A stretch of DNA of 46,112 nucleotides from a virus (taxonomy: Duplodnaviria; Caudoviricetes): the IMG/VR virus record IMGVR_UViG_3300022309_000010, positions 1 to 46,112 of that record. The stretch is one strand, 5' to 3'. The translations under genes were made by a program, and so were the position numbers. The notes beneath the pieces were generated by a model, which worked only from the letters and a program-made list of their open reading frames with translations, searched no databases and had not been told where the DNA came from. Below, in pieces: positions 6,088-46,112 of this stretch (position 1 is the stretch's first letter; each line of letters begins with the position of its first letter).

Positions 6088-6111
6088 TAGGGGAGGATTC
6101 TCCCCTATTTT
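6088..6111 (+). terminator. intrinsic terminator closing the late operon
   Basis: TAGGGGAG-GATT-CTCCCCTA followed by TTTT, between convergent genes. Confidence 0.7.
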
Positions 6112-6144
6112 ACATTACGCCCCATGAAAATTAGATACATAGAG

Positions 6145-6408
6145 CTACACTATATTAATACGCCCCGTGGCGTATATCCTGATAGCCCTTGGCGCGCTTG
6201 GGGCTGTTTTAATCGTGACCCATTGTGCCGATTGCGTGCCTTCCAGGTAGCCTATATCCTCAATCGTAGCGCCGTGGGCAAAGTAGTTCGCCAGCATTTG
6301 CATGATACCAATGTCCCGGTACAGCTCAAACAATTTATCATACGCTTGGTGATCGTACAGCGCCCGGATTCTGATGTCGTGGTGTCTTGAAAAATCTAGT
6401 GCTTCCAT
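6145..6408 (-). CDS. hypothetical protein, probably with its own promoter
   Basis: ATG at 6408 with GGAG RBS; TTGCTA-16-TATAAT at 6470-6443 on the - strand. Confidence 0.6.
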   Translation of the reverse strand: MEALDFSRHHDIRIRALYDHQAYDKLFELYRDIGIMQMLANYFAHGATIEDIGYLEGTQSAQWVTIKTAPSAPRAIRIYATGRINIV

Positions 6409-6567
6409 TTTTATTACTCCCTGTTTGTTGTTCCTACCGAAGATTATATTCAAAATTTCGACAGTAGCAAGCGAAAAGTTAAGATAATTTAACTATTTTT
6501 TTATGGCTTGTCACTTTTGAGTAAATTGGGCGGCGATTTTAGGAATAAAGCACATCTTTTGCCCGGT

Positions 6568-6591
6568 TGTGCGGCCTATTTGCTGTTATGA
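6568..6591 (+). mobile_element. collapsed attC-like mini-site at the left edge of the cassette array
   Basis: TGTGCGGCCTA-TTTGCT-GTTATGA; 22 bp identical to 8565-8586; GTT at 6585. Confidence 0.6.
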
Positions 6592-6750
6592 TGCCTTGGC
6601 AATCTCCGGCAGACCGGACAGGGCATCCCAATCTTTTTGGGTAGGCTCGTTTCCTATCTGCGATATGCGCCGAGGCGACACACCCCATCTTTTCGCCAAT
6701 GCTTGCGCCGTCCATCCTTTGGCGCGTAATTGCTTCACGAAATCTGTCAT
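6586..6750 (-). CDS. small helix-turn-helix DNA-binding protein (cassette 1)
   Basis: GWTAQALAKRWGVSPRRISQIG HTH; ATGA overlap with the upstream gene; stop codon inside the cassette GTTA. Confidence 0.8.
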   Translation of the reverse strand: MTDFVKQLRAKGWTAQALAKRWGVSPRRISQIGNEPTQKDWDALSGLPEIAKAS

Positions 6751-6974
6751 TTGCCGCCCCTCCAAATACAAGGGGCATAATCAAGAGGATGCCCGCCCAT
6801 CTTTCCCGGCTTTAAGTTCCACCCGCAACGGTAAGGGTCAACCATTGTTGCCAGTTCAGATCTTAAAGCGTTACGCTGGAGGGTAAACCCGTTAAATTTT
6901 TGTCTGTATCTGCACTCCGCCTCGCACTCTGGAGGCGTTGTCGGGTCATCTTGGCATAAGGGGGTGGGCCTCAT
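6747..6974 (-). CDS. hypothetical protein (cassette 1)
   Basis: MRPTPLCQ...; ATGA overlaps at both ends. Confidence 0.55.
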   Translation of the reverse strand: MRPTPLCQDDPTTPPECEAECRYRQKFNGFTLQRNALRSELATMVDPYRCGWNLKPGKMGGHPLDYAPCIWRGGK

Positions 6975-7168
6975 GGCCGCACCTCCGCAGGCTTGTTCGC
7001 CTGAAAAACAGGGACAAAAGAAGCGGGAGTATAAACCCGCGCTTGGTTCCGCCATCCCCAGTAATCCCGAGTGCGGAAACCGAAAAGAAGAGACCCGGAG
7101 GCAGTTTTTGCCTCAACAGCGATCTCGCCGTCAGAAAAAGTGTGGTTGGTAATGTATGCGTATTTCAT
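6971..7168 (-). CDS. hypothetical protein (cassette 1)
   Basis: GAGGAG RBS; first gene after the promoter. Confidence 0.7.
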   Translation of the reverse strand: MKYAYITNHTFSDGEIAVEAKTASGSLLFGFRTRDYWGWRNQARVYTPASFVPVFQANKPAEVRP

Positions 7169-7213
7169 TTGTGGTCTCCTCGTTGGTCGGCTTAATTGCC
7201 CTTTGTTAGATAC

Positions 7214-7265
7214 AAAATAGCATTATATTTCTATTGTGTCAAGAGTTATAGTAATATATTTCTAT
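7214..7265 (-). promoter_or_regulatory. sigma70 promoter with two 18-bp near-palindromic operators
   Basis: TTGACA-17-TATTTT with TGn extension; ATAGCATTATATTTCTAT (7217-7234) and ATAGTAATATATTTCTAT (7248-7265) flank the -35. Confidence 0.7.
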
Positions 7266-7296
7266 TTATTGAATCTAACCTCCGAGGTCTCCGGCA

Positions 7297-7386
7297 TCAT
7301 AACAAGCGCATCAACGCAGACGGCGGGGATGCGCGGTGGTTTTAGCGGGGCTCATAGGCCGCCGCTGGTTATGCTTGGCGTTAGGT
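7297..7386 (+). mobile_element. integron attC site (90 bp)
   Basis: TCATAAC-5nt-CAT[C]AAC[G]CAG[A]CGGCGG...CCGCCG CTG GTT ATG-6nt-GTTAGGT; three extrahelical bases on the left arm. Confidence 0.9.
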
Positions 7387-7719
7387 GTACAATTCTCTGT
7401 GTCGTTTAAGCTCATGCTCACCATCTAACCTTGGCAACATTTCCTGAGGCTCGCTACATTCACCTTTCAGATAAACGAAACAATCAGGCCCGCAGCCGCC
7501 ACTAATGCCCACATTAAAGCATTCGCTTGTGCCTACTGGATAGTCTCCAGTGTTCGCAAGCGCATTCCCGTGCTGACGAGCCTCCTCTTCATTTGAGGGC
7601 GGCGCTTCGTGCAGTAGTTTTATAGGGTCTGCCGAGTTACGTTTTGTTGTCGAATGCCAGCGGCCATAAGCCTGCTTATTCTTTTCAATCTCTTGCTCTA
7701 TAAATTGTTTCTTGTTCAT
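7381..7719 (-). CDS. hypothetical Cys-containing protein (cassette 2)
   Basis: GGAG RBS; stop codon inside the GTTA core. Confidence 0.8.
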   Translation of the reverse strand: MNKKQFIEQEIEKNKQAYGRWHSTTKRNSADPIKLLHEAPPSNEEEARQHGNALANTGDYPVGTSECFNVGISGGCGPDCFVYLKGECSEPQEMLPRLDGEHELKRHRELYT

Positions 7720-7738
7720 ATTTCTTGCTCCGTAATAC

Positions 7739-7795
7739 CCCTAACCAATAATTCCAGCGGACTCCTAACGTCGCCGCTGAATATGGTCGTTATGC
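7739..7795 (+). mobile_element. integron attC site (57 bp, 59-base-element size)
   Basis: CCCTAAC-5nt-ATT[C]CAGCGG[A]C...G CCGCTG AAT-6nt-GTTATGC. Confidence 0.9.
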
Positions 7796-8545
7796 CGCAC
7801 TAATCCTGTCCTGTGCAATCTTAAAGTATGCTTCATCTAGTTCTATCCCGATGAAGTGGCGGTTTAGATTCTTGCAAGCTACGCCAGTGGTTCCGCTTCC
7901 CATTGTGAAATCCAGTATAGTGTCGCCTTCGTTGGTGTAGGTTTTAATCATATACTCCATTAGGGCTACAGGTTTTTGTGTTGGGTGTACGCCTCTATCG
8001 CTCTTTATACGGTTATTGAAGAACTGCACACTACTCGGGTTTCTTAACTCTCCATATTTCTTCCCGTCTCTGTTCCTATTTATCCCTCCTGTAGCTTCGC
8101 CTTTCTCGTTCTTGCTTTGAGTTACTGTGTTTGTGTAATCTGGACTGACCCCCCTTTGAGTTCCTTTCCTTTCTTGCATCACAGGGAAATAGTTGTGTTT
8201 ACGCTTACTAAAAACCAACACGCTTTCATGTTCTTTCATTGGCTGGTGCTTTAATGTTGCAAAATTGCTACCAACAGCCTTTTCCCATATCCACTCATAC
8301 TTAAACATATCCAAGCCGCTATTTACCAGCACACTCGTGAACGGCTGGCTCGCAGTCATTACAATAGCCCCGTTCGGCTTAATTATCCGCTTCAACTGAT
8401 CCCACATTGGTTCAAGAGGGATAATAGAATCCCATTTACACGCCGTTGTTCCGTAAGGCGGATCAGCTAGAATCATATCTACCGATCCACTCTCAATCTC
8501 TTTCATACGTTCAAGGCAATCGCCTTGCATTAATCTTATTGTCAT
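7790..8545 (-). CDS. orphan DNA methyltransferase, N6-adenine/N4-cytosine, beta-class motif order (cassette 3)
   Basis: DPPY precedes HPTQKP and LDFTMGSGTTG; stop codon inside the GTTA core. Confidence 0.93.
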   Translation of the reverse strand: MTIRLMQGDCLERMKEIESGSVDMILADPPYGTTACKWDSIIPLEPMWDQLKRIIKPNGAIVMTASQPFTSVLVNSGLDMFKYEWIWEKAVGSNFATLKHQPMKEHESVLVFSKRKHNYFPVMQERKGTQRGVSPDYTNTVTQSKNEKGEATGGINRNRDGKKYGELRNPSSVQFFNNRIKSDRGVHPTQKPVALMEYMIKTYTNEGDTILDFTMGSGTTGVACKNLNRHFIGIELDEAYFKIAQDRISAA

Positions 8546-8565
8546 TAATTTAACCCTCAAAGTAT

Positions 8566-8588
8566 GTGCGGCCTATTTGCTGTTATAT
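8566..8588 (+). mobile_element. collapsed attC-like mini-site
   Basis: GTGCGGCCTA (9/10 complementary to the cassette start TATGCCGCAC, 7791-7800)-TTTGCT-GTTATAT. Confidence 0.7.
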
Positions 8589-8593
8589 TTAAA

Positions 8594-8836
8594 TCAAAGC
8601 ATGTCGCAATCACAGGAATCCTGACCACAATAAAAACATATATGAGCAGGGTCTACTCCACCATCATCCTCTTTCTCAACCCAATTGATTTTGGGTTCGC
8701 TAATTGGGTCTTGCCACTCGCATTCTTTATTCAAAATCGCCGCCTTTCCTTTTCGTCTGGCCTCCTCTTCTGAGGAAGCATCTACAAAAACAGAAACATT
8801 TATCAGAAAGTCTGCATTAACTTTATATTCAGCCAC
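8594..8836 (-). CDS. hypothetical protein with C-terminal Cys cluster (cassette 4)
   Basis: GTG start with GAGGA RBS; CFYCGQDSCDC. Confidence 0.65.
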   Translation of the reverse strand: MAEYKVNADFLINVSVFVDASSEEEARRKGKAAILNKECEWQDPISEPKINWVEKEDDGGVDPAHICFYCGQDSCDCDML

Positions 8837-8854
8837 TATCTTATCCTCTGTAAA

Positions 8855-8882
8855 ATATAACAACAGCTTGCACGCGGACAGT
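8855..8882 (+). mobile_element. truncated attC (left arm only)
   Basis: ATATAAC-5nt-CTTGCACGCGGAC; AAATATAAC complements GTTATATTT at 8582; no right arm or GTT before 8996. Confidence 0.65.
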
Positions 8883-8995
8883 CTCCGCAACAGCTACCGC
8901 GATAACAGCAATATTAGTGCACCTAGATTGCTGATGATTACTATTAATAGGGCGCAAATATATGCAGATTCATTATTCAAGTCGAACATCAAAAT

Positions 8996-9112
8996 GCCTA
9001 ACCATCGCATTGATTGGGACAATTGCTACGGCGCTTCGTCCGAAACAAATTTATTAAACGTGGGGCTAGATGGGCTTTCCACCGCAATTGCCCATCATGC
9101 AAAGCGTTATAC
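8996..9112 (+). mobile_element. integron attC site (117 bp)
   Basis: GCCTAAC-5nt-CAT[T]GAT[T]GGG[A]CAATTGC...GCAATTG CCC ATC ATG-6nt-GTTATAC. Confidence 0.9.
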
Positions 9113-9113
9113 G

Positions 9114-9269
9114 TCAGTTTAGCTCTACGTTATTTTCGCGCTCGCTAGATACAATAGCCTCCAATTTGCGCATAATATTTTCGAGGTCTCCAGCTGGCAC
9201 ATAATTAATCTCCCGGTCTTTTATTTCCCACTTTAACTCCTCAATTAATGCTTCTATTTTGCTTAACAT
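9114..9269 (-). CDS. 51-aa hypothetical protein in a cassette (below the ORF-track cutoff)
   Basis: MLSKIEALIEELKWEIKDRE...VELN*; GGAG RBS. Confidence 0.65.
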   Translation of the reverse strand: MLSKIEALIEELKWEIKDREINYVPAGDLENIMRKLEAIVSSERENNVELN

Positions 9270-9284
9270 ACAGCATCTCCATTA

Positions 9285-9304
9285 ACGTATAATTACTGTT
9301 AGGC
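9285..9304 (+). mobile_element. collapsed attC-like mini-site at the right edge of the array
   Basis: ACGTATAA (complement of TTATACGT at 9107)-TTACT-GTTAGGC. Confidence 0.7.
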
Positions 9305-9523
9305 GTCAATCTCGCGCACTGTAATTTCATATTTAGGCTTGCCGTTACACATAACTATTACAGGCTCGCCATTGGCTATAACATGCTCACATACCGCCCC
9401 GCATGCCTTGCCTGTCACATCCAGTTTATTGGCGCTCCATGTCATGCCGTCTTTCAGTACGTTACCGGCAAATATGCGGTTAGTCAGTGGGCTTGTCCCA
9501 ATGTGGAAATTTGATGTTTTCAT
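9299..9523 (-). CDS. phage hypothetical protein
   Basis: HIGTSPLTNRIFAG...DVT motif; stop codon inside GTTA. Confidence 0.75.
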   Translation of the reverse strand: MKTSNFHIGTSPLTNRIFAGNVLKDGMTWSANKLDVTGKACGAVCEHVIANGEPVIVMCNGKPKYEITVREIDA

Positions 9524-10015: not shown

Positions 10016-11086
10016 CTAAATTCTCATCGGCATAATAACGTGACAATCATTCCCACCGCTAGCCGGGATCAATATCGGGCGGTTATTATCTCCAGTGATT
10101 CCGATTTGTATAATATCATCGTCGATGGAATTTATGGCATCGCTCAAATAATGATGATTGATACCGACCTCAAAAACAATATTCGATCCGCCATCGTCAA
10201 ACGCAATACAGTCCACCGCGCTTTCGTTCAAATTGTTGTTGGATTTTATTTCCAACTCGCCTTTGCTAAACGACAACATAGCGCCGCTGAATTTATCAGT
10301 TGTAATCGACGAAACTCGATTTATGGCCGATTTTAACTCGCCCAGGTTAACCGCCACATATTGCAAATTGGTCGGCACTATCGCTGCGTAGTTCGGGTAT
10401 TTGCCGTCTATCAACATGGCCGTTACTCGCACATTGCCGGATGTAAATGTGGCAAGGTTTGCGCTTGATGTTAGTTTAATTTCGGTTGACTGCAACACCG
10501 ATAGCTTGCGAATGGTTTTTTTCGGCAAAATGAAACCTTCTTTCGTGTTTACTTTCGGCCTATCAATCTTGATTCCGCAATACGCTAACCGGTGGCCATC
10601 GGTTGCAACAATTCGATTCTGTACGATGTCGAAAAACGCTCCGTTTAAATAGTGCCTTACGTCATTATCGGCAACGGCATATTCAATCGTGCGAATCGCT
10701 TTCGCCAGCTCCGTACCGTCGATAACGTATTCATCACCCGCAGCGACCGGCATCAAAGGAAAATCATCGGCGGACATTTTTTCCAGCTTGAATCGTGAGC
10801 GGCCATATTTAACCGTTAGTTTTTCCGCATTATCAATAACAACATCGGAGTTATCCGGCGCGTTTTTCAAAACAGAATCCAGCTTTTCAAGATTAACGCA
10901 AAACCTTTCCGCGTCGCCTTCGTAGTGTGTAGATATTTCTATTTCCGCTGTTCCATCGGACGCAAGTATTTTCAGCTTGTTGTTGCCAGTCGTGATCATT
11001 GCGTTACTGTAAACTGCGTCTTTACGGTTAGATGCTGATTTAACCGCTGAAATTACAGAGTAGAAAATTTCTTTTTTGATTATCAT
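10016..11086 (-). CDS. dnaN: DNA polymerase III beta sliding clamp
   Basis: 356 aa; DVRHYLNG, VATDGHRLA, LIDGKYPNY, C-terminal VIMPMRI. Confidence 0.93.
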   Translation of the reverse strand: MIIKKEIFYSVISAVKSASNRKDAVYSNAMITTGNNKLKILASDGTAEIEISTHYEGDAERFCVNLEKLDSVLKNAPDNSDVVIDNAEKLTVKYGRSRFKLEKMSADDFPLMPVAAGDEYVIDGTELAKAIRTIEYAVADNDVRHYLNGAFFDIVQNRIVATDGHRLAYCGIKIDRPKVNTKEGFILPKKTIRKLSVLQSTEIKLTSSANLATFTSGNVRVTAMLIDGKYPNYAAIVPTNLQYVAVNLGELKSAINRVSSITTDKFSGAMLSFSKGELEIKSNNNLNESAVDCIAFDDGGSNIVFEVGINHHYLSDAINSIDDDIIQIGITGDNNRPILIPASGGNDCHVIMPMRI

Positions 11087-12947: not shown

Positions 12948-13145
12948 TCACCCTTCATAATCAAGCCAGACAGTAACTATCGATGCTGGATAAATAAAAA
13001 CGCCAATGCCGTGTACCACTTCGCATTTATAGTTATTGCTTGGCTCAAAATCACATTCAATAAATTTAACGGCATTGACTACCCACGGCGCGGCGAGCAA
13101 AACAAAAACTAGCGCGATTGATAGCAATAAGTTTTGTGTGCTCAT
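12948..13145 (-). CDS. small membrane protein
   Basis: N-terminal TM helix; CDFE...CEVVHGIG. Confidence 0.65.
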   Translation of the reverse strand: MSTQNLLLSIALVFVLLAAPWVVNAVKFIECDFEPSNNYKCEVVHGIGVFIYPASIVTVWLDYEG

Positions 13146-13747
13146 AATACTTTTTTAACCCCTCTTATAAAGTCGTCCATGGCATATTTAAAACCAGAAA
13201 ACATATCTTCAGCCGCACCGTCGTATGCTATTTTCCAGCTTGATATAATATATTTCTGTATATCTTTGGCGGTGTCGTTTATTGTCGTTGACTCGCCGTG
13301 GAATTTAATCAAAAGATGGTCGCCATCTTTTTTCGGCAAAACTCCAAACTCTTTTATTCTGTCGCGGTCTCCGTTGATAAGACTGACAACCGCCAACACT
13401 ACATCTTTAGCCGTGACAGCAAACGCGGCAGCTGCGCTCGCATAGACCAAAATTGCATCGTCAGAATGATCCATGTTTTCTGTCTCCAATATTTGAATGG
13501 CTTCTTTCAGCTTGAACGATTCATCATTCATCGCACGCGAAAACCAATCAGGATTATTCACAACCGGCGCAGCCTGCTTGCGTTCTTCGAGTATGCGCTT
13601 GTAAATGTCGCCTTTGTAAATCGGAACACTTCGTGGCGCGTCTATGCCAATGTTAACCGTGTCGGCTTCACCAAAGCCGGTTACACGAATAACAATGTCA
13701 TCACCTATGTGAATTGTTCCGTTTTTTCTCAGTGGTAAAATCAGCAT
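13142..13747 (-). CDS. CsrA/RsmA-like domain fused to a tape-measure-like domain
   Basis: aa 1-55 follow the CsrA pattern (MLIL...IGDDI.I.V...V.IGIDAPRSVPI...IY.RI); aa 82-186 align without gaps to tape-measure aa 112-216. Confidence 0.85.
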   Translation of the reverse strand: MLILPLRKNGTIHIGDDIVIRVTGFGEADTVNIGIDAPRSVPIYKGDIYKRILEERKQAAPVVNNPDWFSRAMNDESFKLKEAIQILETENMDHSDDAILVYASAAAAFAVTAKDVVLAVVSLINGDRDRIKEFGVLPKKDGDHLLIKFHGESTTINDTAKDIQKYIISSWKIAYDGAAEDMFSGFKYAMDDFIRGVKKVL

Positions 13748-15990: not shown

Positions 15991-16815
15991 CTACATCGCG
16001 CCAACGATGTCATTATATTTAGCCATCACCGCTTTCATATCGTCCTGGCTCAACAAAGAGCTGGCCGTGGATAGCGCTGCATCGGCATCATCAAGATTCT
16101 TTGCAGATTCCAGCATTGACAGTGCTTCTTGTAGTGTAAATTCTGGCGATGTTTGATCGTCTGTTTTTGCCAAGTCTTTTGTGGTGACTTGATAAGTGCC
16201 AGAATCGTCAATTTCAGCATCGTAAGTATCCGCAATTTGATCCTCTGTTTGAAGGCCCATTGAAATTTCAGGCGCGACAGTATCAACCAGCCAAGCGGCG
16301 GCGCGATACATAAACATTTTTTCAGGCATTGTTTTCCATTTGCTGCCCGGCTTTTGGTCCCACTTCTCGCCACGCACTAGCGCCCATGTGATCCACGGTG
16401 ATTCCACTTTTGCGCCGGTAGATTTTTCTATTGCCCATGCTTTACATCCAAAGTCGTCGTTTTTTTCCGATCCTTTCCATTCATATCGGATAGATGAAAA
16501 TCGCCCACATTGATTGAATGACGCAATTAAAAACTTGGCTGACCAACCTGGCCGACCATGAACAACATATAAATTTTGCATCACCATCAAAGGCGAAGCG
16601 CCGACACGGTTTGCCATTTCCAACGCTATCACGCAGTTGGACAGGTTGTTTGTGTACTGAGCAGGAACCAGCGTAGACGCTGCCAGCATCTTTGCTTGTC
16701 GCTGCATTAGGGCAAACCCTGACTCACTGTTGAATCCAGGGATCACAGCGGCGCCATTCTGAGATGGCATTTTCTGCATTTGTGACAATGTAACTTGCTT
16801 AACTTCTTCGTTCAT
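15991..16815 (-). CDS. single-strand annealing protein (RecT/Beta-like)
   Basis: LVP.QY...NC.IALEMA.R.G.SPL.VMQNLYVVHGRP.W...W.TMPE.M..YRA; lies between the exonuclease and ssb. Confidence 0.8.
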   Translation of the reverse strand: MNEEVKQVTLSQMQKMPSQNGAAVIPGFNSESGFALMQRQAKMLAASTLVPAQYTNNLSNCVIALEMANRVGASPLMVMQNLYVVHGRPGWSAKFLIASFNQCGRFSSIRYEWKGSEKNDDFGCKAWAIEKSTGAKVESPWITWALVRGEKWDQKPGSKWKTMPEKMFMYRAAAWLVDTVAPEISMGLQTEDQIADTYDAEIDDSGTYQVTTKDLAKTDDQTSPEFTLQEALSMLESAKNLDDADAALSTASSLLSQDDMKAVMAKYNDIVGAM

Positions 16816-16830
16816 TTTCGTGTTCCTTTT

Positions 16831-17619
16831 TTATTTACGATAACTGCAAATATTGTATTTTGGGCAATACTGTTTGTGGCAAAGCATTGATTTAGGATTC
16901 CCCCAAAATACGCCAGAGTGAATTATTTTAGATGCTGTGTGTAATATTCCCGGAGAATCTTCGTCGCCAAGCAACACTTCCCTGGCGCCGTTTACTCTAC
17001 CCTTTCCTATTCGTTGCGCCGCGTCCGTTTTTGCGGTGTTTAGACCGATAATTTCAGCGTCGGCGGTTATGTTAACACCTGCACCAAATTCAGCAAGCAG
17101 CTCATAAACGCCAATTTGATACGCATGCCCTTTTGTGTTCACAGTGCCATCCGCACCAACCGCTTGCTTCCCTGTTTTAATATCGCGGATCCCGTATCCA
17201 TTTTCTGTTAGCTCTATTCTATCAGTAGTTCCTGTTAACGCAAGGCCCACATCAGTTATTTCTAGCCGGTCACACCTCACTTCAACTGCGTAATAATTTC
17301 GCTTTGGCGATTCAGTGCTGCAATATTTCTTGTGTAAGCTAACCGCGATTTTTTCCGCATCCTTTTGACTATCTTCGCCCCAGTCAACATCGTATTCAGG
17401 GTGATAGATAGCATCCACCGCAGCGCTAGCGGCGTCGTCAATCGTAATGCCGCTGCCATCTAGCGCGGACTGGTCAAAGACCGCCGTGCTAGCGTGTATG
17501 GCGGTTCCTAGTTGCGCCTTGCCATTGCTCGGCATGTACATATGGTTGATATTTTTTGCCTCCCACCTGGCCGGGCAATCAAACAGCTCACCTAGCGAAC
17601 TTGCTCTAATCGTGTACAT
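16831..17619 (-). CDS. PD-(D/E)xK exonuclease (RecB/Cas4-like, four Cys)
   Basis: DCP.RW, GTAIH, GTTD, DIKTG, Q...Y and C-terminal C...YC..Y..C. Confidence 0.85.
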   Translation of the reverse strand: MYTIRASSLGELFDCPARWEAKNINHMYMPSNGKAQLGTAIHASTAVFDQSALDGSGITIDDAASAAVDAIYHPEYDVDWGEDSQKDAEKIAVSLHKKYCSTESPKRNYYAVEVRCDRLEITDVGLALTGTTDRIELTENGYGIRDIKTGKQAVGADGTVNTKGHAYQIGVYELLAEFGAGVNITADAEIIGLNTAKTDAAQRIGKGRVNGAREVLLGDEDSPGILHTASKIIHSGVFWGNPKSMLCHKQYCPKYNICSYRK

Positions 17620-17798: not shown

Positions 17799-18045
17799 CT
17801 TCGCCCATCCTTATCATCATTATATCAATCAAAAATTGTAGCTCGTCGTAGATTCCCTTTTTGCCCATGATCCCAAACGATTCTTTTGCACCCGATAAAA
17901 TATCAATCACTGACAAAGCATAGCCACGGTCAATGTATGATATGGGCCACCATAATTTAGTGATACAAAAGACTAGGCCGCTGTAGTCTTCGATACCCGT
18001 ATCTATTTTTGCATGATCCGTTATTTTGATTATTTTCGCGCACAT
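17782..18045 (-). CDS. hypothetical protein
   Basis: operon packing. Confidence 0.6.
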   Translation of the reverse strand: MCAKIIKITDHAKIDTGIEDYSGLVFCITKLWWPISYIDRGYALSVIDILSGAKESFGIMGKKGIYDELQFLIDIMMIRMGEDEGDA

Positions 18046-18046
18046 A

Positions 18047-18418
18047 TTAACCGGCCTGATCAGTCAAAAAAATATACCGCGTTTCCCGTTCGATTCTTTC
18101 GCTTTCCCTTGCGTGGTCTTGTATAAATTCCAGCAGCTCCACTTCTACATTAAATTCAACATGCGCCAACAACCTTGCGCGCAAATACTTCCCAAGCGCT
18201 TCATCATTACCCATGCGCATATGGCATGATATTTCTTTTGCTTCATCCTCGCAAATGTTTTCTAGCTGGTCCCATGCGTCGCGCATTATTTCATGATCGC
18301 TCAAATATTTTAGCAATATGCGCTGGCGTTCGTTTTCAATTTCACGGGGTGACGGGTAATTCATTTTGTGTTGCCTTTGCTTGTTAAGCGCTTCGTTTTT
18401 TACAACGGCCATCTTCAA
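18047..18418 (-). CDS. hypothetical protein
   Basis: operon packing; start codon uncertain. Confidence 0.6.
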   Translation of the reverse strand: MKMAVVKNEALNKQRQHKMNYPSPREIENERQRILLKYLSDHEIMRDAWDQLENICEDEAKEISCHMRMGNDEALGKYLRARLLAHVEFNVEVELLEFIQDHARESERIERETRYIFLTDQAG

Positions 18419-18809
18419 CGACTTTCGGGAAAAATTTATGGCTCCCTATTTTGATGTAGTTTTTAGATGTCCAGCACGGTGAGACGTAATCAGCATGGTA
18501 ATGCAAGCTGCCCATAGTTACATCCATTTTTTCGGCCATTTTTAAAAAAACAAACTGGGCCGCAATGCGCCGCGAATCGTCCCAAGCTGCGCGGTCGAAT
18601 TTGTTTGTAATTTTTGGGAGCGAATGTTTTTTCTCTTTGAAATAAGAGAATTGGTTTTTTTCTGAGATAACGGCGCAAATATCAGACGGATAGCGCCCGG
18701 ACTTAACGCGGTTCATCACGACGTTAGCCACAGCTATTTTCCCAATTTCAGGCTGATTGCCTGCTTCGTAAAAAATAGCTAAGGCTAGACACATAAAGCT
18801 AGATAACAT
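18384..18809 (-). CDS. cell wall hydrolase, SleB/Hydrolase_2 family
   Basis: CLALAIFYEA, AVANVVMNRV, YP..IC.V....QFS, IGSH.F. Confidence 0.9.
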   Translation of the reverse strand: MLSSFMCLALAIFYEAGNQPEIGKIAVANVVMNRVKSGRYPSDICAVISEKNQFSYFKEKKHSLPKITNKFDRAAWDDSRRIAAQFVFLKMAEKMDVTMGSLHYHADYVSPCWTSKNYIKIGSHKFFPKVVEDGRCKKRSA

Positions 18810-18974
18810 GATCCCCCCCTTGATTTGACTACTCTTTTTTGCCTGCCTTAAGCGTTTCTTAATGTTGTTAGTGCTGGCAGACTTAATAAATCTTAACTTT
18901 TGAATGAATAGGCAGCGCCAGAATGATGGCGCTTACATGCTAAAAAAACTTTGTTAGAAAGTTAATGTAATCCG

Positions 18975-19024
18975 TTGCGTTGTTGGCATTAGGTAATTAA
19001 ACTAGATAAACAAACTAAAGTCAA
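18975..19024. promoter_or_regulatory. overlapping divergent sigma70-like promoters (PR/PL-like)
   Basis: + strand TTGCGT-17-TAAACT (18975-19003); - strand TTGACT-17-TTTAAT (19024-18996). Confidence 0.55.
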
Positions 19025-19041
19025 CACAGGCAGGAAAATAG

Positions 19042-19239
19042 ATGCGTGTAACGAAAAAAAGTGAAGCGGTGAAGTTGTTCGGAAGCATAAAAGAAATGTC
19101 AGACGCGGTTGGCGTTAGCCCGTCGGCTATCAGTCAGTGGTCGGAAGATTTGTCGAGAGCGAAACAAGATCGCGTTGAAATGGCACTGCTAAGACGACAA
19201 GCGAGGATCCAGCTTGAGGCAATAGCCAACGGCAAATAA
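19042..19239 (+). CDS. Cro-like HTH transcriptional regulator
   Basis: AVKLFGS...MSDAVGVSPSAISQW. Confidence 0.88.
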   Translation: MRVTKKSEAVKLFGSIKEMSDAVGVSPSAISQWSEDLSRAKQDRVEMALLRRQARIQLEAIANGK

Positions 19240-19243
19240 AAAA

Positions 19244-19269
19244 CGCGCCGGAGGAGAGTGACCGGCGCG
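19244..19269. terminator. GC-rich hairpin after cro (A-tract on the left, so a - strand terminator or a regulatory hairpin)
   Basis: CGCGCCGG-AGGAGAGTGA-CCGGCGCG preceded by AAAAAA. Confidence 0.5.
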
Positions 19270-19453
19270 CGAGGCTTCATGAGGAGTTTTAAGAAAGCCA
19301 ATGATACACAATCAATCTATTTATGTATAGACCAGCGCAAAATAATAACAACAATTCGCTAATTAACGAGGATGACATGAATCACTTTCACTCACGCACG
19401 GGGGAATTTTATGAGTAAACGGACCCCAATATCAAAGGCAAAAGGTGCTAACC

Positions 19454-20365
19454 ATGGCCAGAATTAGGACCGTCAAACCCGAGCTTTTTAGGCACGCCGA
19501 ACTGTACGAATTAGAGCAAGAGACCGGGCTTCCGGTCCGACTTTGCTTCATTGCACTATTCACTTGCTGTGACAAAGAAGGCCGATTTAAGTGGCGGCCA
19601 AAGGAGCTGAAATTGGACTGCTTGCCCTACGATGAAATAGACTTTTCACGCGTGCTCGACGCGTTGGCCGCGCGTGGCTTTCTCGTGAAGTACGCGTGGC
19701 GCGGTTCCCTTTTCGGGTGTATTCCGACCTTCCAACGTCACCAAATCATCAACAACAAGGAAAAAAACAGCATCTTGCCTGCTTTTACATCGGAAGATGC
19801 TCAACTCGTTGAAATCCAAGAAGATTCCACGCGTGCCTCACGCGTGCCTCACGCGTGCCTAACGCCACTTGGAAAAGGCAAAGGGGAAGGGAAGGGAAAG
19901 GAAGGGAAGGGAAAGGAAGGGGAACGGGAAGAGTCGCGTGACGCTCCCGTGACGGAAAATAAATTTTCCGCCGCCGACTTGGAAACCGCTGAATGGATTT
20001 ACGAGCGGTTGAAAACAATCAACCCGAACCACAAGCCGCCGTCGTTCCCGTCGTGGGCATCGGACATTAGGCTTATGCGAGAACGCGACAGCCGGAAAGA
20101 CGAAGACATTCGGGCTATATTCGCGTGGGCTAATGCCGACCAGTTTTGGCAAGCAAATATCCTCAGTCCAAAAAAATTACGCGAGAAATGGGACACACTT
20201 ATCCTGCAAAAAAACAGGAGGCCAGTTAACCGGCCCGAAACCCCGGAAGAGATCGACGCCCGGTTGACCGCATGGGCTAACGGCGACGATGGAAGCCAGC
20301 AGGGGATAACTATCGACAGCGAGGCCGTGAAAGAAGGCCTGTATGAACTTTGGGGGAGGGCGTGA
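19454..20365 (+). CDS. phage replication initiator protein (O-like)
   Basis: MARIRTVKPE N-terminus; low-complexity GKGKEG linker; C-terminal FWQANILSPKKLREKWDTL. Confidence 0.85.
   Translation: MARIRTVKPELFRHAELYELEQETGLPVRLCFIALFTCCDKEGRFKWRPKELKLDCLPYDEIDFSRVLDALAARGFLVKYAWRGSLFGCIPTFQRHQIINNKEKNSILPAFTSEDAQLVEIQEDSTRASRVPHACLTPLGKGKGEGKGKEGKGKEGEREESRDAPVTENKFSAADLETAEWIYERLKTINPNHKPPSFPSWASDIRLMRERDSRKDEDIRAIFAWANADQFWQANILSPKKLREKWDTLILQKNRRPVNRPETPEEIDARLTAWANGDDGSQQGITIDSEAVKEGLYELWGRA
19828..19933. repeat. putative replication origin: 3 x 11-bp iterons plus a purine tract
   Basis: CACGCGTGCCT x3 at 19828-19860, then a G/A-rich tract at 19871-19933, inside the initiator gene. Confidence 0.7.
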
Positions 20366-21105
20366 GCATGAATATGAAAACAAAACGAGATTTTGCGGAC
20401 GAATTAAAACTTAGCTACGCGATGCGCGGAAAAGTTCCGCCGACAGCGGCTGTGCTTAGCCGGTGGTGGGAACTCATCGGACATTACCCGGTGGATTTAA
20501 TTATCGCCGCGATCAAAGAGCACGACCGCGTAAGCCAATACGCGGCACAACCGGCGGACATTATCAAGCTGCTCGACACCATGGACGGCAGGCCCGGACC
20601 AGAAGAGGCTTGGGGCCTAGTTTTAAAATCCGCTGACGAGCTGGAGACGGTGGTATGGACGGATGAAATACTCGAGGCAAGATCCGCGTGTGAAAACCAA
20701 CTTTTAGCCGGTGACACGATAGCGGCGCGTAAAGCCTTCCTCGAGAAGTACGAAAAAACCGTAGCAGAAGCGCGCAGAGCGTTTAAACGCGCTAGGTGGC
20801 TACCTTCGTATGGGGCGTGCGTAGATCGTCGCGCTAGCGCAATCTCACGCGCAATTGCGACAGGAAAATTAAAACACGAACCGGCAGGGCTGATGCTTGA
20901 GAACAGAAGCCAGACTTTGGCAGCGCTCACGGATCAATCAAAAACAGCGCCCGAGCAAGCAAAAAAAGCTATCAGCCAGTTGCGTGAAATTTTGGACAAG
21001 ACGAAAAAAATGCAGCGCGAGCAGGCGGAAAAGGATAGAATTGATAAAGAAAACTTAATTAAGGAACTTGAAGCAAGAGAGCGGACCGGAATTAAGATAA
21101 CTTAA
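20362..21105 (+). CDS. replication-associated protein (helicase loader/inhibitor-like)
   Basis: follows the initiator with a GTGA overlap; WW.L...Y...P.DII...DGRPGPEEAW. Confidence 0.65.
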   Translation: MSMNMKTKRDFADELKLSYAMRGKVPPTAAVLSRWWELIGHYPVDLIIAAIKEHDRVSQYAAQPADIIKLLDTMDGRPGPEEAWGLVLKSADELETVVWTDEILEARSACENQLLAGDTIAARKAFLEKYEKTVAEARRAFKRARWLPSYGACVDRRASAISRAIATGKLKHEPAGLMLENRSQTLAALTDQSKTAPEQAKKAISQLREILDKTKKMQREQAEKDRIDKENLIKELEARERTGIKIT

Positions 21106-28082: not shown

Positions 28083-28675
28083 TCGAAAGAAAAGAGTTCC
28101 TTCTAAAAAAATTAAGCCCTGAACACGCAGAGACATTTTCGCGTCTTGATGTAGATACTCAATTTTTTGTCACAGCGGTGGTTGAAGGTGAAAAGCCATG
28201 GTCCGCATACATTGAATTCATCAATGGACGAAAAACAAAAGCGTCGGCGGAAAAATTAGCGGCGGAAATACTTTCAGATAAAGCGATTAATGCGCTTGTC
28301 GAATCCGTTACGAGCGCCGAAGACGACGGCGACATCATGACAAGAAAAGAAGCGCTGCGAAGGCTAACGAGATTTGGTCGCGCTTCAATTTCTAAAATTG
28401 CTGAACTAACTAACGTTGAAATGGTGGACGCTAACGGGTTGTCGTTCAATTCGCTTAACGTATCTTTGAAAGATTCTACGAACTTAACGGACGATGACAT
28501 CTCAATCATTTCAGAAATAACAGCCAAAAACGGCGCGTTTAAAGTCAAAATTCATTCGCCGTTATCTGCCATTGAACAGATACGGAAGATGGAAGGCTGG
28601 GATAACGATAAGCCAATGCTAAATGATGACGTTGCCCGTATGCTAGGATTGCTAATCAGTTCGCGGCCATCATGA
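28079..28675 (+). CDS. terS: terminase small subunit
   Basis: directly before terL; IMTRKEAL.RLT...R and K.KIHSPL.A..Q..KM.GW. Confidence 0.8.
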   Translation: MIERKEFLLKKLSPEHAETFSRLDVDTQFFVTAVVEGEKPWSAYIEFINGRKTKASAEKLAAEILSDKAINALVESVTSAEDDGDIMTRKEALRRLTRFGRASISKIAELTNVEMVDANGLSFNSLNVSLKDSTNLTDDDISIISEITAKNGAFKVKIHSPLSAIEQIRKMEGWDNDKPMLNDDVARMLGLLISSRPS

Positions 28676-31080
28676 CCAATAGCGCAACAGCAAACAGAAT
28701 AAAAAAACAAGTGGATAGGTGGTATCCGCTGAAAGATGTTGCTGAGCAAATTCGCTTGGTGAAAGCCGCGAATGAAGGGCTTAGGTTTCCTGTTATCCCG
28801 GCGGGTCGCCGATGCTTGGAAGAAGGAACGCTTGTGGCCACGCCTAGCGGCCCTGTGGCCATCCAAAATCTAAAGGTGGGCGATTATGTAATCGGATATG
28901 ATAACGGCGCTCACGTCACTACAGTGACTGACATTTGGGATAATGGCGAGCAAGAAGTTATTGCGCTCAAAAGCAGAAACACTGAATTTTTAGCAGCAAC
29001 AAAAACACACAAGCTATGGGCCACTAACGAATCGATGCTTGATAAACGCAGGCCGCATATCGCTGAAAAATACAGCAGGGTTGAGGTAGGTAATCTAACA
29101 AAACGCAGCAGGGTTAAAAAGCAATATTGCCACGACCTGATAAACGGCGGCGAGAAAAATGTAAAATATACTTATGTTCTCGGCGCCATGTCAGGCAATG
29201 GTTGCTGTAGAGAGAGCGGCGGCGGTTCTGGGGTGCACCAAAAAAACCTGTATATTTCATCGCCAGATGACAGCGTGCCGAAAAAAATAGCGACCATGTT
29301 AGAGTGCGAATTTAAGAGCAACCACGAAGAAAACTACACATATGCTATTTGCTTGGGAAATGGTGCGGTTGAGAAAGTGCCGTTTTATAAAGCATGGATG
29401 CACAATCGATACAGTCACGAAAAAATATCGCCGTGGCCAGAGGTTGATCTTTGGGATAAAGAATCCGCTTTGTCTTTTCTTGCGGGTGTTCTTGATACCG
29501 ATGGCAGCGTTTATTTTAAGTCGGAATCAAGGAAAGAAATTGTTGTCGCTATATCAATGCAAGCTCTTGACGTTATAAAGACGTGCCAGAAGATAATATT
29601 CAAATACATGCAGGAGCTTTTTACAATACACGAAGATTCCCGAGAAAAATATAAGAATGGGAGCGTGCATTGTTTGCGGTCAGGATCGAACGGGCAAGCC
29701 TTGCATCTTATCGACTGCCTGAAAGAGTACTCTTTGCGGTGCCAGAATATAAATATTGATGACGTGTCTTGTAGAGGATCAGGCCATAATCGAATTGGAT
29801 TGGCAAAGTCATCGACGAGAATAGCGACGACTTACGATATAACGGTTGGCAATTCTACCAATCTGTATATCTTGCATCATGGCGGAATCGTTACATCTAA
29901 CTCGGGCAAAAGCGAACGAGCAAAGCGCCATATAGTTAAATCTGCGTTTAAAATTCCCGGCATGTACTTCGCCGCAGCTCCTACGCACGACCAAGCGAAA
30001 AAAATATTCTGGAACGATCTAAAAGATTTGGCAATATCAGCGGCACTTCCAAAGCCGCCATCGGAAAGTAACAGAATTATATTTTTACCTAACGGTTCTG
30101 AGATACACGTCATGGGCATGGATAAGCCGGAACGCATTGAAGGCATACCGTGGAAAGGCGGAATACTGGATGAGGTTGCGAATATAAAAGAGCACGCAAT
30201 CAATGAAAACATAATGCCCGCGCTTAACACCAAGACGCCAAACGACCCAAACTATAAAGCATGGTGCTGGTTCTTAGGTGTTCCAGAAGGTTTGAATCAC
30301 TACTATGACATGGCCATGCGCGCAAAGAGTGGCGTCGATCCTGACATGGGCTACTTCCATTGGTTAAGTTCAGAAGTTCTTGATGCGGACGTTTTGGAAA
30401 AAGAAAAAGCACGATTAAGCCCTAGGCAATATCGCCAAGAATATGAAGCAAGTTTTGAAACGGCATCGGGCCGAATATACGAAGATTACTGCGAAAAGAA
30501 TCACACTAGGCGAACAATCCAACCGCATGAACGTCTGATGTGGTGCCACGACCAGAACTTCACGCCGCTATCGTCTGCAATAGCAGTGAGAGAAGGCAAT
30601 CAGATTTTCTTGCTTGATGAAATTGTTTTAGAATCGGCGGTATCAAAACAATCGGCGATTGAGTTTGTCGATAAGTTCAGAAACCACCAAAATAAACACG
30701 TCCTGATTTATGGCGACCCATCTGGCAGAAACGGCGAGAAGCACGCGCACGAATCTGACTACGAAGAAATAGAAAAGGTTTTACGAAACAACAAATGGAC
30801 GTATGAGCGGCGTGTTGACACGTCACACCCTAGCATCAAAGATCGACAAAACGCAGTTCGTGCTAAAATATGTAATGCGTTAGGCAACCGAACTTTATTT
30901 GTAAATCCAGCAACGGCGAAATGGTGTGACAAAGGATTGTCTACAGTTCAGTTGCAAAAAGGATCTTCGTTTCAAGAAGATCAAACGAATCCGTATCAAC
31001 ATATAACCACGGCTATTGGATATATGACTAGTCGAGAATTCCCGATTCAGTCGGGCACTACAACCGTAGGAAGAATTTGA
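28672..31080 (+). CDS. terL: terminase large subunit with an intein
   Basis: Walker A AGRR/SGKS, APTHDQAK, Walker B ILDE, QEYEASF, nuclease domain (HDQN, YGDPSG). Confidence 0.95.
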   Translation: MTNSATANRIKKQVDRWYPLKDVAEQIRLVKAANEGLRFPVIPAGRRCLEEGTLVATPSGPVAIQNLKVGDYVIGYDNGAHVTTVTDIWDNGEQEVIALKSRNTEFLAATKTHKLWATNESMLDKRRPHIAEKYSRVEVGNLTKRSRVKKQYCHDLINGGEKNVKYTYVLGAMSGNGCCRESGGGSGVHQKNLYISSPDDSVPKKIATMLECEFKSNHEENYTYAICLGNGAVEKVPFYKAWMHNRYSHEKISPWPEVDLWDKESALSFLAGVLDTDGSVYFKSESRKEIVVAISMQALDVIKTCQKIIFKYMQELFTIHEDSREKYKNGSVHCLRSGSNGQALHLIDCLKEYSLRCQNINIDDVSCRGSGHNRIGLAKSSTRIATTYDITVGNSTNLYILHHGGIVTSNSGKSERAKRHIVKSAFKIPGMYFAAAPTHDQAKKIFWNDLKDLAISAALPKPPSESNRIIFLPNGSEIHVMGMDKPERIEGIPWKGGILDEVANIKEHAINENIMPALNTKTPNDPNYKAWCWFLGVPEGLNHYYDMAMRAKSGVDPDMGYFHWLSSEVLDADVLEKEKARLSPRQYRQEYEASFETASGRIYEDYCEKNHTRRTIQPHERLMWCHDQNFTPLSSAIAVREGNQIFLLDEIVLESAVSKQSAIEFVDKFRNHQNKHVLIYGDPSGRNGEKHAHESDYEEIEKVLRNNKWTYERRVDTSHPSIKDRQNAVRAKICNALGNRTLFVNPATAKWCDKGLSTVQLQKGSSFQEDQTNPYQHITTAIGYMTSREFPIQSGTTTVGRI
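28813..29901 (+). mobile_element. 363-aa intein with LAGLIDADG homing endonuclease
   Basis: starts CLEEGTLV, block B AT.THKLW, ends TYDITV...GIVTSN followed by Ser; YVLGAMSGNG and FLAGVLDTDG. Confidence 0.93.
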
Positions 31081-45000: not shown

Positions 45001-46112
45001 TTTCATGGCCGCAATCAACCGATCAAAATGTTGTTGGTTATCGCGTCTTGTGGATTAGGGGACTAGCTCACAGGACGCCAAACGTGCACGAAGTACCGCG
45101 AAGAAGTGAAACATCTGTATGGATTGGCCCTGTCGTTGATGGCGAATCTTATCTTATCGGAGTTGTTGGAGTAAACGCGCACGGTGAAACGGGGTCGATG
45201 CTAAGGTGGACCATTCACACCGTCTTAGGCAAATCTGTTCCACCAACAAATATCACCGGCGCATCGGTAACAGGTAACAGTCGCGGAATAACTGTAAAAG
45301 TTACCGCAGCACAAATGCCGTCTGATCCCGATTTGAAAGCATTAGCTATTTACACATCCGCCACAAACGGCCGAGCAGCAGCGACAGAATACGCACGTTA
45401 TGATGTTTTCCCAAGCTCGCCGTTTGAGGTGACATTACCAATCGCGACAGGGCAAGCAAGATTCTTTTGGTTCAAAACTGTAGATACGAGCAAAAATCTA
45501 TCTACTCTGTTTTTCCCCAACACAACGACATCGACTTACACCACGGCAGCGACGGCGGCAAACGCGCTAACTGATTTGGTGTATAACGACCTAACGCCTA
45601 TCGAGAATTTACGCCCTGCTGAACCTGGCGCGGACGTAACAAAAGACCAGCCAGAGGTTTACAACAACGATGCCGGGTTTCGAGAAACTTGGGAGCGTGC
45701 AGATAGTATTATCCAGTGGCAGAACTACTCTGGCGCTGGCGAAATAAGCAGATTACAGTTAAGCGACGCCGTAACTGGCGGTTATGTTTTAAGAGTTGGA
45801 AATAATGCTGGCGACGATCAAGCTTGGCTGGTTAGTCGGACATCGATTCCGTTTGAGCCTACAAAATTATATAAAACCACTTTGAGGATTAGGCGCACGG
45901 CAGGGACCGGAATTGCTGCGGCTGGTTTTTTTGGTGTAGCGGCGGATGGAGTGACGCTGGTAAATACAACTGGAGCAAATTCAGTCGCCAGTCAGCACTA
46001 CCACGTTGGGGATAGCTTAGGGCCGGGGGCGTCATGGTCCGTGTACACCGGATACACTCAGGGCAAGGGCACGCCGAATGGAACTAGCACCGTTGGCACA
46101 TTAATAAATCCG
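42048..46112 (+). CDS. large tail-tip/host-specificity protein (continues across the junction to 1313; about 1747 aa)
   Basis: ATGA overlap; MRTFNDNFEAKK...; no stop in the segments I read and no terminated + ORF in the track; FN3-like domain near 45000-45260 (VSWP...GYRV.W...Y...V.GVN..G). Confidence 0.88.
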   Translation, partial: MRTFNDNFEAKKNAGQLKLRLAMRVDFNSNFTDPVWFTSHADTSVPGGADVIHDVLASGIVKSHSLEKIASIGGGNVIIADRNNLVHNKFRAKLQAGKGLRAKRVTMYLGFSGDSFSSYEKMGTYQFANLTESLNGYKLQLKDIYRKLKDKTLFTPVVTNLSNHILADIVASDLSFAAADKSINSVNTKLDVYNGRVGQKIYVQGTTSNNGHFTIASVAANKITFTETIVNESAGNEFILQQGTIDVYDTSKYDLFAHDGNYEDLPNKEVVYFQIEKEIISAEVISPGKFDKCRKGVLGTKSVEHIINATADNGNKIEVKSVAYMQGPIAKLRLAVLQREIPNQPGKVLPISWTVDIDPDQLDEASFTSIGSDLWDTATDKGRIGRFIFTSSVSAKELFEIYFSDMDNCWMSINSSGEYVLERRVSVTDTAAYVDILDDSNIKEGRELSYDAEDVRNHIEVNWHKSLLDGQFRRKNTYLLSQSITTHQQTDPLVVDLHGAYGGADSRQTLANVVSALAQKYANPPRRITLNLLPMMMHLNVGDIVKLRTSKVRDFSGTTTTIDRQFEIIETSLNIETLEVTVTLEGTSGNVGPAIIDDYSNALPDSFYGAIAAGTGIWSGRNLVSSLPGYSAGTLSTASTMTGGSTFMSGVWYHDGDLNISAGVISNNVLLIVKGHLTISGTFTGKGRGLAGRSGVASVDSYALLKGESGGFGHTTQGSGIDYIAQSDNIWSSSSLRRKFWVSSRGGWPFFTPGTYSQVPHFNIEWNGTELTGMPTDLRGTSGGQGYGVARRVINDTSETLYGSAGGAGGAALATLSRGMSFAGSGKIDLSGNDGAAPSYLEKNAWAPRIYAGAGAGGYNGAWLCQIDGTSNSTPEINDATFIAETGNYGAQVNVGFRPPKISQFGGYTDVGAYENLTFAGTYEPAAKSINTSSSFRLQFINQNIAKEVTEVEVPSAIIGVSCNSGTNYLERSSSTGQVNSYIGVSWPQSTDQNVVGYRVLWIRGLAHRTPNVHEVPRRSETSVWIGPVVDGESYLIGVVGVNAHGETGSMLRWTIHTVLGKSVPPTNITGASVTGNSRGITVKVTAAQMPSDPDLKALAIYTSATNGRAAATEYARYDVFPSSPFEVTLPIATGQARFFWFKTVDTSKNLSTLFFPNTTTSTYTTAATAANALTDLVYNDLTPIENLRPAEPGADVTKDQPEVYNNDAGFRETWERADSIIQWQNYSGAGEISRLQLSDAVTGGYVLRVGNNAGDDQAWLVSRTSIPFEPTKLYKTTLRIRRTAGTGIAAAGFFGVAADGVTLVNTTGANSVASQHYHVGDSLGPGASWSVYTGYTQGKGTPNGTSTVGTLINP
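45987..46112. repeat. 126-bp terminal direct repeat, right copy
   Basis: identical to 9-134. Confidence 0.97.

Follow-up and report, generated by a model that had tools for sequence, protein, structure and literature searches.

Integrons are commonly viewed as bacterial devices that phages pick up occasionally. In bacteria, preferential use of attC's bottom strand secures the correct orientation of cassettes relative to the promoter Pc (Loot et al. 2017, PMC5371416), and anti-phage cassettes have been reported in host integrons (10.1101/2024.07.02.601686). Qi et al. 2023 described 17 phage clusters of attC sites lacking integron integrases (CALINs), and the integrase IntI1 recombined five of six virulent-phage sites with attI1, including both tested sites of phage H101 (PMC9892861). 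The arrays of phages TJE1 and H101 were termed typical, and the accessible part of that report does not mention genes antisense to attC. Here, we analysed the entire 46-kb record of a tailed-type sediment bacteriophage (IMGVR_UViG_3300022309_000010, 46,112 nt; hereafter the window). We consider it highly probable that an integron-type cassette array lies at the far end of its leftward early operon, that the array genes run opposite to those of bacterial cassettes, and that an IntI, either acting in trans or lost in the meantime, likely built the array.

Three attC sites were identified, with the plus strand as the top strand in all three:

7297..7386, plus strand: attC, crossover G7380^TT (detector; 24.4 bits)
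7739..7795, plus strand: attC of 57 bp, a type known from bacterial integrons, crossover G7789^TT (detector; 47.4 bits)
8996..9112, plus strand: attC of 117 bp, crossover G9106^TT (detector; 16.7 bits), with a canonical bottom-strand hairpin

Each site has the attC architecture of R''-5 nt-L''...L'-5/6 nt-R', with a 5-nt spacer and an 8-nt L'' containing an extra base on the left side, and a 7-nt L' and a 6-nt spacer on the right side. An attC detector, designed with the window sites already in view, assigned a score of at least 14 to just these three sites in the window, and ten shuffles (461,096 nt) yielded four such hits. A bottom-strand covariance model, built from 55 bacterial sites that all lack the central motif of the window site, ranked the same three sites first to third in the window, on the minus strand and at their exact coordinates. 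The next hits scored 16.2 and 15.4 bits, so that 8996-9112, only 0.5 bit above, is marginal by the model alone. The three complete hairpins, with plus as the top strand, had been proposed in a preliminary description made from the sequence, which also suggested the covariance search; both the detector and the model bear them out. The lowest-energy fold of the bottom strand is canonical for 7739-7795 and 8996-9112, and both fold within the range of bacterial sites adjoining intI. With at least two co-oriented attC and no intI nearby, the window array is a real CALIN whose cassettes depart from the canonical polarity, and is a novel form of integron cassette system.

The genes between these sites form the following units:

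6586..7380, minus strand: cassette A, with three open reading frames (6586-6750, helix-turn-helix protein, 54 aa; 6747-6974, 75 aa; 6971-7168, 65 aa); own ends complementary at 11/11
7381..7789, minus strand: cassette B, 112-aa gene 7381-7719 with its stop in a GTTA core; flanked by two full attC
7790..8582, minus strand: cassette C, orphan N6/N4 DNA methyltransferase, 7790-8545, 251 aa (PF01555, E 3.7e-37; phrog_67; PADLOC MTase_II)
8583..8880, minus strand: cassette D, 80-aa gene 8594-8836, followed by a plus-strand left half attC; own ends complementary at 10/11
9107..9298, minus strand: cassette F, 51-aa gene 9114-9269; own ends complementary at 8/8
9299..9523, minus strand: DUF7446 gene with its stop in a GTTA core; no upstream attC of its own was found, and three of eight viral loci with relatives have inverted attC beside them

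In a canonical cassette, the open reading frame lies on the attC top strand and reads towards its own attC. All eight genes of the array are instead on the minus strand, the attC bottom strand, as had been proposed, and carry ribosome-binding motifs; the gene calls came from a custom scorer validated against the window only. Four TAA stops lie one nucleotide beyond a G, at 6585, 7380, 7789, and 9298; these are the stops (6586, 7381, 7790, and 9299) earlier placed inside GTTA cores. The start of each cassette was also said to complement its own far end, and all five complementary pairs were recovered at their coordinates. The own-end matches of 11/11, 9/11, and 10/11 were reached by 1, 5, and 1 of 844 AAC sites, respectively. 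This own-end complementarity points to a circular intermediate and bears out the proposed footprint of IntI-mediated insertion of circular cassettes. Some units required revision. The ends of the first were correctly placed, but it holds three open reading frames and a sigma-70-like promoter match (7242-7214). Instead of full attC, 19-bp simple sites close the methyltransferase unit and the 51-aa unit, and the site at 8855 is a left half only.

The gene order of the genome comprises lysis and tail genes up to about 6.1 kb, the leftward early operon from about 18.8 kb to 6145, and then replication, head, and tail genes. A tail gene spans both ends of the record, and the 134-nt terminal repeat (1-134 / 45979-46112) is identical at 130/134 positions, and therefore indicates a complete genome, as initially supposed, and a circular one, despite the collection entry, which gives a linear class and a completeness of 68%. 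Across this whole genome, Pfam, PHROGs, a six-frame PF00589 search, and tblastn with an IntI (best E 0.29) detected no tyrosine recombinase, in line with the preliminary description. The window genome thus lacks the intI gene of a complete integron.

The inverted layout is common to most other phage sites examined and is widespread in phages. A pattern derived from site 7739-7795 retrieved 22 stretches from viruses and 122 from bacteria or archaea, and a broader pattern retrieved 127 viral stretches. Loci without flanks were left unused (42/122 cellular; 47/127 viral with the broader pattern), and same-contig repeats were removed (1/22 viral and 3/80 bacterial; 11/80 viral with the broader pattern). 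Of the strong genes flanking sites of the first pattern, 33 were antisense and 2 sense across 21 viral contigs, compared with 7 antisense and 89 sense across 77 bacterial loci. The broader pattern gave 91 antisense and 9 sense genes in 69 viral contigs. For cassettes enclosed between two sites, 114 of 118 viral ones were antisense (1 sense, 3 empty), while 67 of 81 cellular ones were sense (5 antisense, 9 empty). The ends beyond the R box fitted their own cassette better than the neighbour in both groups (viral, 85 vs 15 with 18 ties, p 5e-13; cellular, 52 vs 14 with 15 ties). These counts, like those for viral IntI loci and breakpoints below, were obtained with a 6-nt right spacer in the detector and undercount the sites; this setting misses the TJE1 and H101 sites, which a relaxed spacer recovers. 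Reanalysis with the GenBank annotation revealed normal polarity in TJE1 and inverted polarity in MW202573 and in H101 (four sites, including both tested), while P12002L gave no match to the covariance model. The uniform inverted polarity, initially regarded as unusual, was thus confirmed as antisense but is not peculiar to the window phage, being the rule among the sampled phage sites. At three viral loci (L191, L195, and L205), the gene to the left of attC is sense and the one to its right is antisense; these are candidates for captured host-type cassettes.

Integron integrases occur beside such arrays. We collected 59 viral IntI loci, and all eight proteins tested passed TIGR02249. In 20 of the 59, attC lies upstream of intI; the geometry relative to intI was normal in 20/20, and the genes were inverted, on the intI strand, in 19/20. 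Among covariance hits at viral IntI loci, 77 of 85 in 50 loci have the bottom strand on the intI strand. Most of these phage arrays display an attI-like G^TT after the last gene, 60-154 bases ahead of intI. In a FastTree analysis of 43 viral and 34 bacterial proteins, from which L459 was left out, 29 distinct viral IntI formed a single virus-only branch with a support of 0.979. The gene upstream of intI was co-directional in 23 of these 29 members and missing in 6, compared with 21 divergent, 1 co-directional, and 7 missing among 29 bacterial loci. No intI was present in the five orphan-array records examined. In one phage locus (L002, 2340-2900), at least five inverted attC are accompanied by a phage-type attI and by an intI fragment of 59 aa, and this locus is a visible intermediate between a complete and an orphan array. 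Separately, a second group of phage IntI (L392-L395, L401-L402) resides within co-directional operons; one of these loci (L395) has four attC downstream of intI with normal gene polarity, the inverted-integrase layout.

Breakpoints in related phages coincide with G^TT, as site-specific recombination predicts. A cassette present in one phage (L221) and missing from another (L189) is bounded by 311 identical nt up to the G and 2 after it at one end, and by 3 before and 244 after at the other. Two further phages (L174/L210) have one cassette in common between unrelated neighbours, with 4 and 364 identical nt on the two sides of one breakpoint and 363 and 5 at the other. A third pair (L179 vs L161) differs by 1749 extra bases, which begin 2 bases after a G. 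The preliminary description held that the phage gains and reorders cassettes by borrowing a host IntI. The breakpoints in other phages agree with the gain and reordering, but a host IntI is only one candidate agent, in view of the many phages that carry their own IntI after such arrays. For the window array, an IntI from an ancestral phage or from a co-infecting one is no less likely a source than a host IntI.

These comparisons place the window array among the described systems. Like the phage CALINs (PMC9892861), it is an attC cluster without an integrase that carries an orphan DNA methyltransferase. As far as the accessible part of that report goes, its intI-bearing phages harbour captured bacterial-type integrons, unlike the phage integrons found here. 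The window array shares with bacterial integrons the attC anatomy, the G^TT crossover, the own-end footprint, the promoterless single-gene units, and stops that overlap the core. It differs from them in its bottom-strand genes, in having attC upstream of its own gene, in stops that lie in R' and not in R'', and in the lack of intI; expression would come from the phage early transcript, towards attI, and not from Pc. Inverted-integrase integrons (PMC13323075) resemble the phage arrays in having intI co-directional with the cassette genes. According to the accessible part of that source, however, intI is flipped relative to attC and the genes are normal there, whereas the phage integrons of this study have flipped genes and keep intI and attC in normal geometry. 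The literature searched, with most subscription papers outside its reach, yielded no account of inverted cassettes in phages and none of an IntI lineage belonging to phages.

Each unit extends from one G^TT to the next, with attC upstream of the gene start and the stop in or beside the preceding core. In the mechanism that we propose, IntI would act through the folded bottom strand, here also the coding strand, to release the units as circles, and would place them at attI-like or attC sites. In the phage ancestor, intI would be the last gene of the early operon, and a single transcript would read through the cassettes and attI into intI. Given that intI, attI, and attC keep their normal geometry, only inverted genes could share this transcript. 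New cassettes would join at the promoter-distal end. The polarity of the window array was most likely inherited from such phage integrons, with the same place and polarity retained and intI gone. IntI activity on the window array, read-through expression, and this origin of the polarity are our inferences. The corresponding end of the early operon is as follows:

6088..6408, minus strand: end of the early operon, 87-aa gene 6145-6408 and terminator-like hairpin 6088-6107 (hairpin and open reading frame calls)

This segment would represent the place where phage integrons carry intI. The window array is likely an orphaned, partly decayed member of the phage integron type. Whether phages run an integron system of their own appears evenly balanced; in such a system, a phage IntI lineage, encoded by the last early-operon gene, would shuffle an oppositely polarised pool of phage genes and service orphan arrays in trans.

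The junctions of the window array illustrate both its construction and its decay. Six G^TT junctions were found, at 6585, 7380, 7789, 8582, 9106, and 9298, of which three close full attC and three close 19-bp simple sites:

6573..6591, plus strand (top-strand sense): putative attI-like simple site at the array start, 7+5+G^TT layout, G^TT at 6585
8570..8588, plus strand: simple site, G8582^TT, second copy of a 22-nt repeat; its left part complements the start of cassette C at 9/10
9286..9304, plus strand: third simple site, G9298^TT, 7+5+G^TT layout
8880..8995, no strand assigned: remnant without a credible minus-strand gene (only a weak plus-strand open reading frame, score 4.3, in gene scoring)

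The layout of the simple sites, a 7-nt box, a 5-nt spacer, and G^TT, is the same as at array starts in bacteria and phages, beside intI. The site at 6573-6591 lies at the position expected of an attI, and its layout suggests that simple sites may act as attI. The left halves of 8570-8588 and 9286-9304 complement the starts of their own cassettes, and these two sites may be arm-less former attC or attC/attI hybrids. An exact 22-nt repeat occurs at 6568-6589 and 8565-8586, and joining 6585 to 7790 restores the junction of the methyltransferase cassette itself. This suggests that cassettes A and B joined the array later, at this G^TT, and that the simple site can serve as a target. Between two full attC, there are only cassette B, as a single cassette, and the block 7790-9106. 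A left half attC is present at about 8855-8879 with its right half missing, and the remnant 8880-8995 was probably left by a deletion that took half of the preceding attC. This partly decayed array now has three full sites, a single half site, and three simple ones. One Pc-like promoter candidate beside the array, a 9/12 plus-strand match at 6458-6485, was one of 13 matches (8.2 expected in shuffles) and is irrelevant to minus-strand genes.

Several observations weigh against this interpretation. Site 7297-7386 prefers a non-canonical lowest-energy fold, contrary to the canonical folding that had been anticipated for all three sites and was obtained for the other two. Its canonical fold has a probability of 3.6e-4 in place and is about 100-fold likelier in the circular-cassette form. 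The folding z-scores of the bottom strands of 7739-7795 and 8996-9112 are just -1.1 and -0.9; 7297-7386 alone among the three clearly exceeds shuffles. The simple sites of the window match phage attI in layout and not in sequence. Near-identical phages account for several of the viral loci, which makes the counts less independent than they look, and TJE1 and a few viral loci show normal polarity. The sampling of bacterial IntI was narrow (one class and five loci), and an IQ-TREE analysis with only two bacterial rows supported the viral branch at 88/88 but placed L405 outside. No close relative of the window phage was found by protein-anchored viral scans or by blastn against GenBank phages. 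In the latter, only the methyltransferase matched among the best 20 of 196, and site 7733-7800 matched nothing; a metagenome pattern scan returned just the record of the window itself (L366). The skipped-cassette junctions that the preliminary description had proposed to look for, and excision joints, were not seen among the contigs of the single run holding the phage, which is probably its source. With respect to a host, site 8996-9112 had no real match in plasmids or in five genomes, and 400 genomes from a single class gave just one weak hit. Several short contigs of the probable source run (X1; depth 8-32) resemble parts of the 117-bp attC (8993-9116), with 2-5 differences over 34-52 nt, and are possibly a repeated host site.

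Some of these points would also fit an array that was built by IntI in the past and is now a fossil, with present shuffling carried out by the phage RecT and exonuclease on similar attC arms. The genome encodes both enzymes (15991-17619), decay is apparent from the half site, the simple sites, and the remnant, one site folds poorly into the canonical form, and the 31 nt shared at the right end of the L161/L179 difference fit homologous recombination equally well. However, the array retains three intact sites, two of them folding within the bacterial range, and most junctions in other phages share 1-4 nt before the G, too short for homology-driven exchange. We regard this explanation as unlikely, and it bears on the present activity of the array, not on its origin. 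It is more doubtful still that the hairpins persist chiefly because they serve the early transcript as RNA elements, for processing, stability, or attenuation, with their likeness to attC being secondary; we judge this very improbable. The bottom strand is indeed the mRNA strand, and the sites lie 15-20 nt upstream of the start codon for cassettes B, C, and F. However, such a role leaves unexplained the own-end complementarity across hundreds of bases, the G^TT breakpoints, and the adjacent intI, and no Rfam family matched anywhere in the window. An extra RNA role may exist on top of attC function.

The least probable explanation, which we consider to have only a slender chance, is a captured block of ordinary bacterial cassettes that was inverted within the phage. 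The 57-bp site type is present in bacterial integrons, and capture of integron pieces by prophages has been described (PMC9892861). Nevertheless, an inversion preserves the relative strand of gene and attC, and viral relatives exist for the cargo. Of 198 viral cassette proteins, 59 matched other viral ones and none matched any of 128 bacterial ones; the sample is small, and bacterial cassette proteins match each other in just 5 of 128 cases, which makes this comparison of the viral and bacterial pools weak. Top-strand insertion of normal cassettes was ruled out, since the normal relative polarity of gene and attC would persist. Assembly by an IntI, with a polarity inherited from phage integrons, thus remains our preferred reading.

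If the phage integron system is real, host cassettes, many of them anti-phage, would be silent in phage arrays, and phage cassettes would be silent behind a host Pc. It would provide a site-specific mechanism for part of the mosaicism of phage early regions and for how counter-defence genes, orphan methyltransferases among them, turn over, and would form a counterpart to the anti-phage cassettes of host integrons (10.1101/2024.07.02.601686). H101 offers a cultured phage with the inverted layout. The same genes occur as plain operon genes and as cassettes, which gives a tractable view of cassette genesis.

The cargo of the window array consists of the orphan N6/N4 methyltransferase, the helix-turn-helix protein, DUF7446, and five small uncharacterised proteins. 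Pfam, NCBIfam, and PADLOC gave no family for five of the eight genes (the PHROGs search missed the 75-aa open reading frame). The cargo had been described as phage-like, and the viral relatives of its genes agree with this. Relatives of three cargo genes are mostly ordinary phage genes without attC. Those of the methyltransferase have attC within 2.5 kb in just 3 of 80 viral loci, with all five sites inverted, and the gene is therefore usually not a cassette. The 65-aa protein of cassette A has nine relatives at 73-84% identity. The 112-aa gene of cassette B has six viral relatives (53-80%), none with attC detected nearby, and its atlas clusters are viral, which serves as a lead only.

Elsewhere in the genome, the cumulative GC skew switches near the replication initiator gene (window 18000-21100), and this turn may merely mirror the coding-strand bias. 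A leftward fork would put the attC bottom strands on the lagging-strand template, favouring their folding (PMC5371416). The phage also encodes a DNA polymerase III beta clamp (10016-11086) and a protein of 201 aa that has a CsrA domain at its N terminus (13142-13747). The large terminase (28672-31080, 802 aa) has Hint and endonuclease matches and contains a probable intein.

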